From Vulcanimicrobiota bacterium (lineage in GTDB: Bacteria > Vulcanimicrobiota > Vulcanimicrobiia > Vulcanimicrobiales > Vulcanimicrobiaceae): a DNA stretch of 64,000 bases. The position numbers were made by a program. The stretch is from assembly GCA_963714015.1 (NCBI GenBank), contig OY970223.1, positions 2,816,001-2,880,000 of the forward strand. The letters are read 5' to 3'. How positions within the stretch are numbered: position 1 is the stretch's first letter; the number at the start of each line of letters is the position of its first letter. Of the stretch, positions 18,001-21,000 are shown piece after piece.

Positions 18001-21000
18001 CGTGGATTGCGCCGTGAAAACGGATCCGTTCGGTATTCGGAAACACTCGCACGATCGCGTGTGAGACGGTGCCGCCTCCCCGATACTTGTCGGAGGCGTT
18101 CACGCAACGGATCCAGACGCCTTTCAGGTGCGCCGGCGCAACGGCGATCGATCGCAGATCCGCCTTCGACTCCGCGACGAATTCCTCGTCGGCGTCCAAC
18201 TGCAGAATCCAGCGCTTCGTCGCCATCTTCAGCGCCTCGTTGCGCGCCCAGCCGAAGTCGTTGCGCCATTCGCGCTGCTCGACGCGCGCGCCGAACCGCT
18301 TCGCAATTTCAATTGTCCGGTCGGTCGAGCCGGTGTCGACGATGTTGATCTCGTCCACGACGTCCGCGACGCTGGCAAGGCACCGTTCCAGGAAGCGCTC
18401 TTCGTTCTTGACGATCATGCACAGGCTTATCCCGGCCGGAAGCTGCGCCCATCCGGGCGGCGGCTCAGGCAGGCCGAACGGCATGGCGCTCGCAGGGGCA
18501 GGCGCGGCCGATCGGCGGGCCTTCACACGAAGTGGCATCGCACTAGTAATCGGCCCAACAACGTGTCCCGCTTTAGTTAAGAACCGCAAAGAATATGACG
18601 GGGAACTCACTGCTGCCTGGGCCGGTCCCACGTTCCCGGGTCGCCGCTAGAAAATCAGCGTCCTGCAGTCTTTGATGCGCAGGGTGCGAGCCGCCATGCC
18701 CCCGAGGCGCGCTCCGACATTTTTGCGTAAACCACGGATGGTTTCTTCAAAGCTTGCTTTCGCAAAAATGCGGCGCGAGCAGAAAATTCCCATGGAGGGG
18801 AATTTTCTAGCGGCGACACGGGGGCATGGCGGCTCGCACCCTGCGCATCAAAAACCGCCCCCTAATAAAAAAAGGAGCCCGCCGAAGCGGGCTCCCTTGA
18901 CCAGCCTTGAACCGATTAACGGAAGAGGCCGAGAACCGACTGTGCGTTGGCGTTCGACTGCGCCAAGACCGAGGTGCCGACTTGCACCAGGACTTGAAGC
19001 TTCGTGAACTCCGTGGTCGCTTGGCCCACGTTGAGGTCGCGAATTGCCGACTCGGACGCTTGCAGGTTGACCGAGGCAACGCTGTCGTTGTTCGCATCTT
19101 CGTTCAGACGAACGACGACCGCACCGAGCTGGGCCTGCTGGCCGAGCAGCGTGTTGAGCGCGTTGTCGATCTGACCGATGGCGTCTTCCGAGGAGAGCAC
19201 GCCGGCGGCCGTGTTCGCAACGTTGATGTTGGAGATACGGAGCGCCTGGGCGTTCGTCGCCTGGATGCCGATCTGCACGGTGTCGCCTTCGTCAGCGCCC
19301 GACTGGACGGTGAACGGACCGGCGGCCGAGCTCGAGGCTGCGACGGCTTGGTTGACCTTGATGAACGCCGTGGTGCCCGCATCGCCGAGCGAAACGTTGC
19401 CGACCGTGATCGTGAGACCGTCGACGGTGATCGCGCCGGTGTTGGCGGCGTAGTTGCCGATGACTTGGGCCGGCACCGACGTCGAGGTGTTGGTGCTGGA
19501 CCAGAACGACACTTGAACTTCAACCGTCGAGCTGTTCTTGTTGATGACTTGCAGCTCGACCGTTCCGTCTACCGCGCCGGCATTCGTCGTCTGGAAGCTG
19601 GCGGTCGTTCCGACGCTGGCAACGAGATTGCCGCTGCCGGCACCGGCGCCCGCTTGCGCCAGAACGGCGTTCGACGTGATGTTGAACGTCGAGGCCTGGT
19701 AGGCCTGGAATCCGGAGTGGCTGCCGTCGAGCAGAGCGGCACCGTTGAAGTTGGTGTTCTGCGCGATGCGGTTGACTTCCAGAAGCAGCTGGTTGATTTC
19801 GTCCTGCAGATTCTGCGTGTCGGACGGGCTGTTGACGCTGCTGGCCGCTTCGACGGCTAGGCCGCGGATGCGCTGCAGGATGTCGGTTTCCGTGGAGAGC
19901 GCGCCGAGCGCGACTTGTGCCGCGTTGTTCGCGTCTTGAACGTTCTGCGAAGACTTGGTTGAACGCGTCGACCTGCGTCTGCAGGTTGGTCGCGATTGCG
20001 TTGCCGGACGGATCGTCGGCAGCAGAGTTGATGCGAAGACCGCTCGAGAGCTGCGTAACGGTGTTTTGCAGCGCGGCTTGGTTTTTGTCCAGATTGTACT
20101 GGACTTGGTTGGCCAACAGATTGTTGGCGATACTCAGACCTGGCATGTTTCCTCCATGATCACACGCTTGTGTGGGATGACTAGTCGAGGGGGGACGTCC
20201 TATCCCCCTTCTGTCAAGGTATCGGCCCTACGCGATACGACTTTAGCGGTTTTTATCGGGTTTCGAAGATTTTTTGCGCGGAGCGAGCGCGGCGCGCCCA
20301 ACGGTCCCGGCATGCTCGGTCGCAGCCGCGGCGGTGTCGGCCGCAGAACGGTTGCTGCGCTGGATCTCTTCATAGATTTCGGAGCGGTGTACGGCGATCT
20401 CGCGAGGCGCTTCGATGCCGAGTTTGACTTGGTCGCGGTCGACGGCGACGACCACCACGCGGACGTTGTCGCCCACCATGATGGACTGATTCACTTTGCG
20501 GCTTAGGACAAGCATCGGTGCCCTCCTTGGCGTTTCGGCGGCTCGCCGCGCACCGGAATAGTTCCCGGAAGCGGCCGCCTTCGGCTGTCCTGCTTCTACG
20601 CCGGTTGGGCCGCGCCTTGCGGCAGGAACTTGCGGCGCGGGATAGGCGCCTTGATCGGGTAGTTCGAGTTCTCGAGCATGACCTGGCGCGCCCGGTTCGT
20701 CTTCAGGTTGATGACGATGGGGGCCATGAGGTTCATGGTCATTTCCTGCGCGTCTTTGGTGACGACGACCACGCAAAGAACGGTGAAGTCCTCGCTGCTG
20801 CGCAGGTTCAGCGTCTCGGTAGCATAGACCGGCAGTCGCGGCTCGTAGTCGGCGAAAATCTGCCAGGGGTCGGCGGCCGGAAGCGCGACCTTCGGATCGT
20901 CGATGGATTGAAGCCACACGAAGTTCGGCTGCTCGTCGAGCGAAAGCGCGAGGAAGCGTTGCAGACCCGAGAATCCGGGAAGTCCCCACGGGAACTGTAC

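Follow-up and report, generated by a model that had tools for sequence, protein, structure and literature searches.

A probable MITE-like mobile repeat with a branched, structured core, confined to one family of Eremiobacterota

Between a flagellin gene and a glycosyltransferase gene in the window (the whole stretch of 64,000 nucleotides that was analysed) lies a non-coding segment in which a long stem encloses a branched core. The locus raises the question of whether such a segment is the gene of a small RNA or a piece of DNA that moves. An earlier note described here a unit of about 140 nt (18692..18833), one of 17 copies in the source genome, and proposed a family of small structured RNAs that might be CsrA decoys. 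The sequence at 18692-18833 is as described, and a profile search (nhmmer) recovers the same 17 places at E <= 1.1e-8. The element does lie there, but the extent given is too short, and the full unit in the window is 18665-18858. As argued below, the element is probably a non-autonomous mobile repeat, MITE-like, structured and new, that is confined to a single family of Eremiobacterota. The features of the window copy and its neighbours are as follows:

16571..18631, minus strand: glycosyltransferase-2 and TPR gene (Pfam, ORF list, codon model), 5'-side neighbour of the element; start at 18631 or 18484
18665..18713, plus strand: closing stem P1, 5' arm (flank local alignment, inverted-repeat scan, fold); perfect part 18671-18704
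18705..18713, plus strand: inner part of the P1 5' arm, common to subfamily-A copies
18714..18773, plus strand: domain P2, a helix of 18714-18727 with 18761-18773 that encloses hairpins P2a and P2b
18729..18744, plus strand: hairpin P2a, loop CGGA with GGA at 18736-18738; motif in context CA-C-GGA-U-G
18749..18760, plus strand: small hairpin P2b, within the conserved TTCAAA(A/G)CTT; weakly supported
18782..18807, plus strand: hairpin P3, loop AUGGAG with GGA at 18794-18796; motif CAUGGAGG
18810..18858, plus strand: closing stem P1, 3' arm (alignment, inverted-repeat scan, fold); perfect part 18819-18852
18865..18897, minus strand: flagellin terminator, a hairpin and T-run between the flagellin stop and the element, outside the element
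18916..20146, minus strand: flagellin gene (Pfam Flagellin_N and Flagellin_C), 3'-side neighbour, on the opposite strand

The limits of the unit are set by a perfect 34-bp inverted repeat (18671-18704 with 18819-18852), returned by a genome-wide inverted-repeat scan, and by a mismatched extension to 18665-18858 that emerges from local alignment of the flanks. In the window copy the inverted repeat encloses a core of 114 nt; family-wide, the conserved core is about 110 nt long and has a branched fold. The 196-nt stretch folds at -127.5 kcal/mol (z -13.0) on the plus strand and at -135.9 kcal/mol (z -13.4) on the minus strand. Covariance model R1 finds 18 matches in the source genome, namely the 17 copies and one weak match. 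The latter, near contig position 3214026, is uninformative. The same model finds the element in 68 of 101 genomes of the family, with 1 to 32 copies in each genome that bears it. In a sample of the phylum it occurs in 31 of 44 family genomes and in none of 76 genomes from 20 other families, so that the claimed restriction to one family is upheld. The family bearing the element consists of soil bacteria.

The closing stem is 30-55 bp long, nearly perfect and specific to its locus. The stop and last codons of the neighbouring gene often lie inside it, with an inverted copy in the opposite arm, which argues that the stem is built in place at the DNA level. A gene converges on the 3' side of 59 copies, and in 15 of these its stop codon falls inside the 3' arm. 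One 3' arm contains 24 nt of the coding sequence of an OEP-family outer-membrane efflux gene (ending DITDTSR*), faced by an imperfect inverted copy in the 5' arm; the same-genus orthologue ends DIVDTAHLSF*. Stems likewise take in the stop codon of nuoD, whose conserved C-terminus is GEVDR*, and the final codons of infB. The native origin of the outer arm is firmly established at only a few loci. In most comparisons of filled with empty sites the spacers are too diverged to align. Fifteen pairs of copies with 88-97% identical cores have only 0-25 nt in common out of a stem of 29-57 bp. Searched against the source genome, the arms have no match elsewhere besides one tandem duplicate and two chance hits of 14-16 nt, and a role as guides or antisense to other loci was rejected. 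Pre-existing long palindromes can likewise be dismissed as insertion targets, since the element family accounts for 11 of the 14 long inverted repeats of the whole genome; only two other loci carry such repeats. Since the closing stem is made in place, its compensatory changes are no evidence of RNA: what the earlier note took for covariation there arises from inverted duplication of flanking DNA, neighbouring stop codons included.

A structured fold with covariation is borne out for the inner helices in two alignments. In a MAFFT alignment of the 17 own copies, and with the closing stem left out, 86.9% of the cells are paired, against 34.6-53.4% with slid partners. Both sides vary in 26 of the 34 pairs, and none of 500 shuffles attains the observed value. 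The second alignment, fitted to the model, holds 91 copies (the 17 own copies and 74 from 27 other genomes) and gives 93.9% paired cells against 40.4-54.5% with slid partners, with changes on both sides in 33 of 34 pairs. Within this set, pairing reaches 97.5% in the P2 helix (both-side changes in 13 of 13 pairs), 95.7% in P2a (5 of 5 pairs covary) and 99.0% in P3 (9 of 10), and 62.3% in P2b. The loops are conserved to different degrees. GGA is present in loop 1 of all 17 own copies and of 84 of the 91, and in loop 2 of 12 of 17 and 62 of 91, so the description of a nearly invariant GGA motif in each arm is true of loop 1 only. Both loops carry GGA in 60 of the 91 copies, and the form CA(N)GGANG occurs in loop 1 of 69 and loop 2 of 53. 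Nothing in Rfam matches the element at gathering score, the best row being a microRNA hairpin model (26.5 vs 92 bits).

The strand that carries the GGA motifs is the favoured folding strand, as seen from the excess of G.U over A.C pairs on it. This amounts to 32 vs 11 in the core and 111 vs 42 in the stem (143 vs 53 together), has the same sign in every context class and is strongest in copies that are antisense to both neighbours (42 vs 8). A strand count on 31 copies (G.U 7, A.C 17) was set aside; helix P2b, which is ill defined, dominated it, and two of the genomes behind it were unpublished. Of the core pairs, only 1.2% are G.U, compared with 6.5% in the tRNAs of the source genome, and the 32 G.U pairs of the core are outnumbered by 50 other mismatches. 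As pairing is almost purely Watson-Crick, both strands are able to fold.

The copies differ in presence between close relatives. The window copy is missing from the orthologous spacer of the csrA-flagellin-glycosyltransferase region in 13 relatives, two of them from the same genus, and in none of the 13 is its place next to csrA-fliW-flagellin kept. The flagellin terminator is retained in relatives that lack the element. At the copy at contig position 1369328 the operon spacer measures 226 nt in the source genome and 40, 18, and 7 nt in three relatives, and the element is absent at all three source-genome sites compared with genomes of the same genus. A locus in another genus is filled in genome G050 and empty in G179 and G189 (spacers of 24 and 31 nt); in G164 that insertion is present but has lost 73 nt from its interior. 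The G164 copy, with its core broken, has kept its stem, with one compensated change from T:A to A:T. In a tree of the 91 cores, copies group by genome and not by locus; the three copies located behind nuoD, from three genera, stay apart. Such positions recur across genera (after nuoD in three; after infB, rho and a tonB-type gene in two each), and may be a sign of function retained there, not of hot spots. Alignment of filled with empty sites leaves the insertion borders undefined for the window copy and for the copy at contig position 2924916, the spacers being too diverged and containing other repeats.

The element is thus a short, non-coding, multi-copy unit whose presence differs between relatives, as MITEs are. 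Two defining MITE features are lacking, since there is neither target duplication nor a conserved terminal repeat. A direct repeat of at least 5 nt borders 7 of 83 copies, compared with 7.8% in mismatched controls, and the flanks are inverted copies of each other; terminal inverted repeats are not conserved among copies across the family. A search for a driving transposase, limited to the Y1_Tnp family (PF01797), gave no candidate: the domain occurs in 6 of 101 family genomes, the source genome not among them, and just one of the six carries the element. Membership in the REP/RAYT system is ruled out on the same count.

Placement relative to genes is strongly patterned. Gene calls and context counts come from our own codon log-odds model; a GC3-based caller used before it had mis-called at least one neighbour. 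Among 80 copies with both neighbours called, 50 lie in tandem, 25 in convergent and 5 in divergent spacers, compared with 72%, 14%, and 14% of the spacers of the source genome by number. The element is therefore enriched in convergent and depleted in divergent spacers, and its absence from divergent spacers of the source genome, claimed before, holds for all 14 own copies that could be placed. The 3' side is tightly positioned, the arm ending within -24 to +22 nt of the converging gene's stop codon in 46 of 59 copies (median 7 nt). The median distance on the 5' side, where the spacing is less strict, is 38 nt to the stop of an upstream gene and 74.5 nt to an upstream start. In inverted pairs of copies the 5' ends face each other (9 of 9). 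Thirty-three of 83 copies are antisense to both neighbours, some within operons, and in five copies just 12-21 nt separate the stem from the start codon of an upstream gene on the opposite strand. Copies inside operons stand between nuoD and the next gene in three genera and between an lpd-like gene and the next. The neighbours are unrelated housekeeping genes. A GC-skew reading of the source genome places 8 copies in leading and 9 in lagging orientation, hence without a bias linked to replication; single-strand exposure at replication was rejected on this count.

From these patterns we infer the following life cycle for the mobile repeat. The moving part would be the core of about 110 nt together with at most about 5-20 bp of inner stem. 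The core, which some enzyme would have to move, folds on the GGA strand as a single strand into its branched form, with two hairpin loops of a protein-recognition type. Once the core has landed behind a gene, in a spacer, its short inner inverted repeat would be extended outward at the DNA level: flanking sequence would be copied, inverted, onto the opposite side, with template switching or fold-back synthesis as the likeliest mechanism. Extension would continue until the stem meets the neighbouring coding sequence, which would leave every copy with a long, nearly perfect, locus-specific stem. Transcription of a neighbour through the copy, where it occurs, must produce an RNA hairpin of 30-55 bp, whichever strand is read. 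RNase III might cut this hairpin, or the hairpin might block exonucleases, with possible effects on the mRNA or on CsrA, and the GGA loops would be exposed only when the copy is transcribed in the sense orientation. Several observations are difficult for the mobile-repeat reading, among them the lack of a driver and of the two MITE features and the recurrence of some positions across genera. The G.U excess of antisense copies is predicted neither by read-through transcription nor by a simple fold-back model. This suggests that resident copies are selected for folding of the GGA strand, as one would expect of an RNA gene. Another difficulty is that the loops are conserved in a form compatible with CsrA sites. 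A bolder version, in which the module of about 110 nt moves without a recognisable transposase, one-sided copying clamps it in a stem made from the end of the neighbouring gene, and the loops are true CsrA sites, we consider unlikely.

The rival reading, which goes back to the earlier note, is that the copies are small-RNA genes read from the GGA strand, which would titrate CsrA through their two GGA loops as an RNA antagonist in a FliW-type lineage. To our knowledge, the FliW protein is the only known opponent of CsrA in that lineage. The inner fold and the CsrA-like loops of this proposal hold up; promoter, T-run and synteny do not. CsrA sites are of several types, among them CAGGA(U/A/C)G in the repeats of CsrB, RUACARGGAUGU as the SELEX consensus and hairpin loops of the form ANGGAN (PMC7652899, in excerpt); the element loops match these types, as had been claimed. 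CsrA (90 aa) and FliW are indeed encoded 1.4 kb from the window copy, beside flagellin. The flagellin leader of the source genome has a hairpin with the loop AGGAC, and the flagellin Shine-Dalgarno lies within CAUGGAGG, the 8-mer of the commonest loop 2; two CsrA-type sites that resemble the element loops are thus predicted in this leader from its sequence. The wobble preference for the GGA strand also suits such genes, and the tight 3' and loose 5' spacing would leave room for a promoter. Yet sigma-70-like sites are not enriched upstream (mean best score 6.57 vs 6.45-6.64 in other flanks and strands, with a consensus that may not be that of the phylum). No conserved upstream promoter sequence was found, base composition being flat up- and downstream of the stem, and no promoter is recognisable by eye inside the core. 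The hairpin of an intrinsic terminator is present and its U-run is absent: no T-run follows the stem, and T or A is not enriched beside either arm. The short distances to opposite-strand start codons in five copies, the many doubly antisense copies, the lack of synteny, the 29 of 91 copies without GGA in loop 2 and the scarcity of G.U pairs relative to tRNAs also tell against it. The Csr/Rsm models of Rfam do not match the element, the sole rsmX row (17.5 vs 56 bits) falling on the flagellin terminator instead. A tally of incomplete assemblies, unpublished genomes among them, gives CsrA in 57 of the 68 element-bearing genomes and in 26 of the 33 that lack the element. The 11 element-bearing genomes in which it was not found have up to 19 copies, but their assemblies are not complete and two of them have congeners with CsrA; in G038, with four copies, fliW abuts the flagellin gene and csrA is missing from between them, its usual place. 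We found no literature joining Eremiobacterota and CsrA. The decoy idea is accordingly a minority reading and, on balance, quite improbable.

Alternatively, the element may be a gene-end feature that serves the host, co-transcribed in either direction as a stop without a U-tract, a 3'-end protector or an RNase III site, with the core as a passenger or a handle for a protein. This unlikely account agrees with the position of most copies directly at stop codons, the excess of convergent over divergent spacers, the operon-internal copies (through which transcription is expected), the ability of either strand to fold and the retention of the stem, with its compensated change, in the broken G164 copy. 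It also has precedents in the Correia elements (RNase III) and ERIC (orientation-dependent mRNA stability) (PMC2229807, in excerpt). Against it, a U-tract is present on neither side, the window copy comes after the canonical terminator that flagellin already has, relatives manage the same sites without the element, and the conserved branched core, the loops and the preference for the GGA strand are left unexplained. A further possibility is a recombination or priming site in single-stranded DNA: the GGA strand would fold like the bottom strand of an integron attC or the hairpin of a phage attP, and the loops would be read by a recombinase or replication protein. The fold is strand-specific and tolerates G.T poorly, the copies sit directly behind stop codons, in most of them the strand that folds lies opposite to the coding strand, and two similar loops would fit a dimeric protein. 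This possibility is nevertheless very unlikely, as there is no bias of replication direction, the neighbouring genes are present in element-free relatives and are therefore not cassettes, and no candidate enzyme emerged from the one family tested (Y1_Tnp).

If the mobile-repeat reading is correct, a long stem can pass covariation tests without being an RNA helix. Because copying of flanks at the DNA level can yield such stems, screens for RNA structure must separate inherited helices from those built in place. The element would also be a new repeat family in the little-studied Eremiobacterota, without the usual marks of a MITE or a REP; a literature search on Vulcanimicrobium and repeats gave no such repeats among the matches listed, as far as titles and the beginnings of abstracts tell. 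Hairpins of 30-55 bp right behind housekeeping genes and within operons are likely to affect mRNA processing. Should the loops bind CsrA, they would constitute the first family of RNA partners in a FliW-type CsrA lineage. If the module does clamp itself in a stem of its own making, mobile elements would have a mode of settling that is new; with loops that are true CsrA sites, every burst of copies would supply further transcripts with hairpins that bind CsrA, or with antisense RNAs.

The element shares traits with several known systems. Like REPs and REPINs, it is a palindromic intergenic repeat that lies behind genes, in convergent and tandem spacers, and folds as a single strand. REPs are 20-40 nt long, have conserved stems and depend on a Y1 (RAYT) transposase, unlike the element, in whose family that enzyme is rare and seldom found together with it. 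In template-switch ('quasipalindrome') mutation, one side of an inverted repeat serves as the template for the other, and the repeat becomes more perfect and longer. The arms of the element are similarly complementary and appear to have grown by copying, with a native gene end as one arm and its inverted copy as the other. Quasipalindrome mutation is, however, described as a mutational mechanism at single sites; it is not known as a regular stage in the history of mobile elements that combine a conserved, structured core with fixed polarity.

With the Csr/Rsm decoys CsrB and RsmY/Z and with mRNA leader sites, the element has in common a loop GGA closed by C-G and A-U pairs, and its CA(N)GGANG is of the CsrB repeat type (PMC7652899, in excerpt). 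It has two sites per unit, as a CsrA dimer would need. Each of those decoys comes from one or a few conserved genes that have a promoter and a terminator of their own and offer many GGA sites (PMC7652899, in excerpt), whereas the element is mobile, is present in 1-32 copies, lacks promoter and terminator signals, has two sites in each copy and is often antisense. In general form the element is close to Correia/NEMIS of Neisseria and ERIC of enterobacteria, which are MITEs whose transcripts fold into long hairpins (PMC2229807, in excerpt). These too are small (<200 bp), non-coding, intergenic and variably present, with a long stem from end to end, and they are co-transcribed with their neighbours and affect the mRNA through RNase III or according to orientation (PMC2229807, in excerpt). 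Known MITEs have family-wide terminal inverted repeats and direct duplications, often of TA (PMC2229807, in excerpt); the element has instead a locus-specific stem, derived in part from the end of its neighbour, and no duplication. Also unlike known MITEs, its conserved part is a core that branches and whose helices covary.

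The intergenic element is present in the window. Its arms, 18671-18704 and 18819-18852, form an inverted repeat that is perfect over 34 bp, encloses a 114-nt core and reaches 18665-18858 with a few mismatches. The earlier note had delimited it at 18692-18833; this sequence does belong to the element but forms only the middle of the longer unit. The 196-nt unit folds strongly on the plus strand (-127.5 kcal/mol, z -13.0 against shuffles) and on the minus strand (-135.9 kcal/mol, z -13.4). Within the closing stem, P1, the core comprises:

18714-18727 with 18761-18773, plus strand: helix P2, carrying hairpins P2a and P2b
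within P2, plus strand: hairpin P2a, loop CGGA (loop 1)
within P2, plus strand: small hairpin P2b
between P2 and P3, plus strand: single-stranded linker
18782-18807, plus strand: hairpin P3, loop AUGGAG (loop 2)

Both main loops (P2a and P3) show GGA on the plus strand, and the strand with this property is referred to here as the GGA strand. A scan of the element against Rfam gave no family match.

Single-sequence BLAST and nhmmer searches, followed by a profile, recovered 17 copies in the source genome, all at the coordinates reported earlier. A covariance model of the inner helices only (R1) has matches in 68 of 101 sampled Vulcanimicrobiaceae genomes (1-32 per genome) and, in a phylum-wide sample, in 31 of 44 genomes of the family and 0 of 76 from 20 other families, six unpublished genomes being included in these tallies. 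The inner fold of the core is real. When the 17 copies are aligned with MAFFT without reference to structure, the inner helices have 86.9% of their cells paired, compared with 35-53% for slid partners, and 26 of 34 inner pairs have changes on both sides. For 91 copies (the 17 plus 74 from 27 other genomes, none unpublished), the values are 93.9% against 40-55% and 33 of 34 pairs, in an alignment fitted to the model and thus favoring its structure. The paired fraction in this set is 96-99% in P2, P2a and P3 and only 62% in P2b. GGA occupies loop 1 in 84/91 copies and loop 2 in 62/91, the wider motif CA(N)GGANG in 69/91 and 53/91, respectively; the common variant has CGA in place of GGA.

The closing stem has a different origin. 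P1 was measured by local alignment of the flanks without a structure model. Its median length is 34 bp and it ranges from 7 to 126 bp, although the longest stem lies at a contig end and may be an assembly artefact; the 91 copies together contain 3007 Watson-Crick pairs, 111 G.U and 42 A.C pairs, 29 gaps, and 130 mismatches of other kinds. Fifteen copy pairs with 88-97% identical cores have only 0-25 nt in common in stems of 29-57 bp, and the arms of the 17 source-genome copies have no further match in that genome except for one tandem duplicate. Of the 14 long inverted repeats found genome-wide, 11 belong to the element, so ready-made palindromes are not its landing sites. Moreover, a converging gene follows on the 3′ side of 59 copies, and in 15 of these its stop codon falls inside the 3′ arm. 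The nuoD stop codon lies in the stem (C-terminus GEVDR* in three genera), as do the last three codons of infB. At one OEP-family gene (genome G065), the 3′ arm takes in the final eight codons, stop included (DITDTSR*), and the 5′ arm holds an imperfect inverted copy of them; since the same-genus orthologue ends in DIVDTAHLSF*, it is the coding arm that is native. Together, these observations show that most of P1 is made at each locus. The compensatory pairs that the earlier note counted in the closing stem therefore gauge DNA-level copying, not RNA covariation.

The element is mobile. On either side of the window copy lie the flagellin terminator and a glycosyltransferase/TPR gene; the order csrA, flagellin, glycosyltransferase/TPR gene is kept in relatives, and the element is absent from 13 of 13 orthologous loci, two of them from the same genus. 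Copy 1369328 occupies an operon spacer of 226 nt, against spacers of 40, 18 and 7 nt at this site in the three relatives compared, and copy 2924916 is absent in two same-genus genomes. One locus in another genus is observed filled (G050, L071 1483-1654), empty (G179 and G189, spacers of 24 and 31 nt) and deleted: G164 (L143, ~1490-1600) shares the insertion but has lost 73 nt from its interior, namely the inner 5′ stem and domain P2, and keeps the outer stem. Despite this broken core, one T:A to A:T change between the G050 and G164 stems is compensated on both arms; one C-to-T change yields a wobble pair. In a tree of the 91 cores, copies group by genome (e.g., all five of G045, all five of G015), and three post-nuoD copies from three genera do not group. 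No direct target duplication was detected at the copies. Copies downstream of the same OEP-family gene in two congeneric species (L127 in G116, L126/L030 in G065) have opposite orientations, which could reflect inversion by stem-arm recombination or independent insertions.

Placement was scored for 83 of the 91 copies, eight being too close to a contig end or having a stem score <30, with genes called by a codon log-odds model trained on the source genome. With GGA read 5′ to 3′, the neighbors are (-,-) in 33, (+,-) in 25, (+,+) in 17 and (-,+) in 5 copies, and one neighbor is missing in 3. Relative to the source-genome spacers, of which 72, 14, and 14% by number and 63, 12, and 25% by length are tandem, convergent and divergent, respectively, the element avoids divergent spacers and favors convergent ones. 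The 3′ arm ends within -24 to +22 nt of the converging gene's stop codon in 46/59 copies (median 7) and ≤30 nt from the start of a co-directional gene in 11/23, whereas the 5′ side is looser (medians 38 and 74.5 nt). Adjacent inverted copies face each other with their 5′ ends in 9/9 pairs. The neighboring genes are unrelated housekeeping genes (nuoD, infB, rho, secA, pyk, guaA, purB, pth, fliP, cheR, and others), and the source-genome copies have no replication-direction bias (8 leading, 9 lagging). As the most likely mechanism, we infer a mobilizing activity and directional copying: a short structured core would be mobilized by some activity and insert in spacers behind genes, where a short inner inverted repeat would grow outwards as flanking DNA is copied onto the other side. 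Growth would end at coding sequence on the 3′ side and be one-sided, new sequence being added on the 5′ side, in keeping with the close 3′ and loose 5′ spacing and with the head-to-head orientation of paired copies.

Other repeats occur in these genomes. A short intergenic repeat with CTCAGGATGAC after a CTTCGA-type motif lies in tandem in spacers of relatives (L087 of G101, ~1150-1500; 5′ flanks of L027, L069, and L078) and is probably the "first" repeat family to which the earlier note alluded. Outside the window, the sole other long perfect inverted repeat of the source genome (C1:1393355-1393638, 35-bp arms) has no sequence relation to the element; its 214-nt spacer contains several hairpins, including a terminator-like one with a T-run. 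At C1:2550426-2550665, also outside the window, repeated 21-bp arms adjoin tRNA-3′-half-like sequences (T-arm motif), possibly marking a site of integration at which tRNA ends were duplicated.

The GGA strand is preferred for folding, and pairing is nearly pure Watson-Crick. On this strand G.U exceeds A.C in the core (P2, P2a, P3; 32 vs. 11) and in the stem (111 vs. 42); per copy, G.U is in excess in 51, in deficit in 13 and equal in 19. The excess is present in every context class and, in the stem, greatest in copies antisense to both neighbors (42 vs. 8); the source genome's own copies have none (10 vs. 11). Wobble makes up 1.2% of core pairs, against 6.5% in the source genome's 47 tRNAs, a control whose brackets hold allowed pairs only, and other mismatches in the core outnumber wobble pairs (50 vs. 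32). This pattern would be in keeping with base pairing at the DNA level, with both strands having to fold, or with the copies being young. Neither read-through transcription nor deamination bias nor a simple fold-back model explained the strand preference, and this preference remains the strongest point in favor of the GGA strand having a function in resident copies.

The copies might be genes for CsrA decoy RNAs, as the earlier note proposed, and on the level of motifs the idea is a good one. The source genome encodes a 90-aa CsrA and FliW beside a flagellin gene, whose leader (20245-20144, minus strand) has a sigma-28-type promoter (TAAA, 15 nt, GCCGATA) overlapping the csrA stop codon. Two features stand out in this leader:

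20208-20190, minus strand: hairpin, loop AGGAC
20158-20151, minus strand: Shine-Dalgarno sequence, inside CAUGGAGG

CAUGGAGG is also the commonest loop-2 8-mer of the element. The hairpin and CAUGGAGG are likely native CsrA sites, predicted by analogy with the Bacillus hag leader as described in PMC7652899, the flagellin leader here likewise having two probable sites. Among the CsrA site types which that account describes are the CsrB repeats CAGGA(U/A/C)G, the SELEX sequence RUACARGGAUGU and ANGGAN hairpin loops (PMC7652899), and the element loops match them. Only these motifs and the preference for the GGA strand support the decoy reading; all other observations speak against a family of decoy genes. 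No promoter or terminator signal accompanies the copies, they lack synteny, and many are antisense to their neighbors, some only 12-21 nt from the next start codon. GGA is retained equally in sense and antisense contexts. CsrA occurs in 57/68 element-bearing and 26/33 element-free genomes, unpublished genomes and incomplete assemblies included, and thus without association. In G038, which has four copies, 2 nt separate the end of fliW (168 aa; contig C28, L142 2027-2535) from the flagellin start codon, csrA is missing from this interval, and a CsrA domain was not found anywhere in the assembly (94% complete).

The original observation is confirmed and extended. A REP/RAYT route is excluded for the element. 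Its closest described counterparts are MITEs of the Correia and ERIC types, the transcripts of which fold into long hairpins (PMC2229807). In contrast to these, the element lacks both the conserved terminal repeats and the direct target duplications that define MITEs. It fits best among the small mobile palindromic repeats, as a new variant set apart by a branched core with covarying helices and by a stem that it builds itself.
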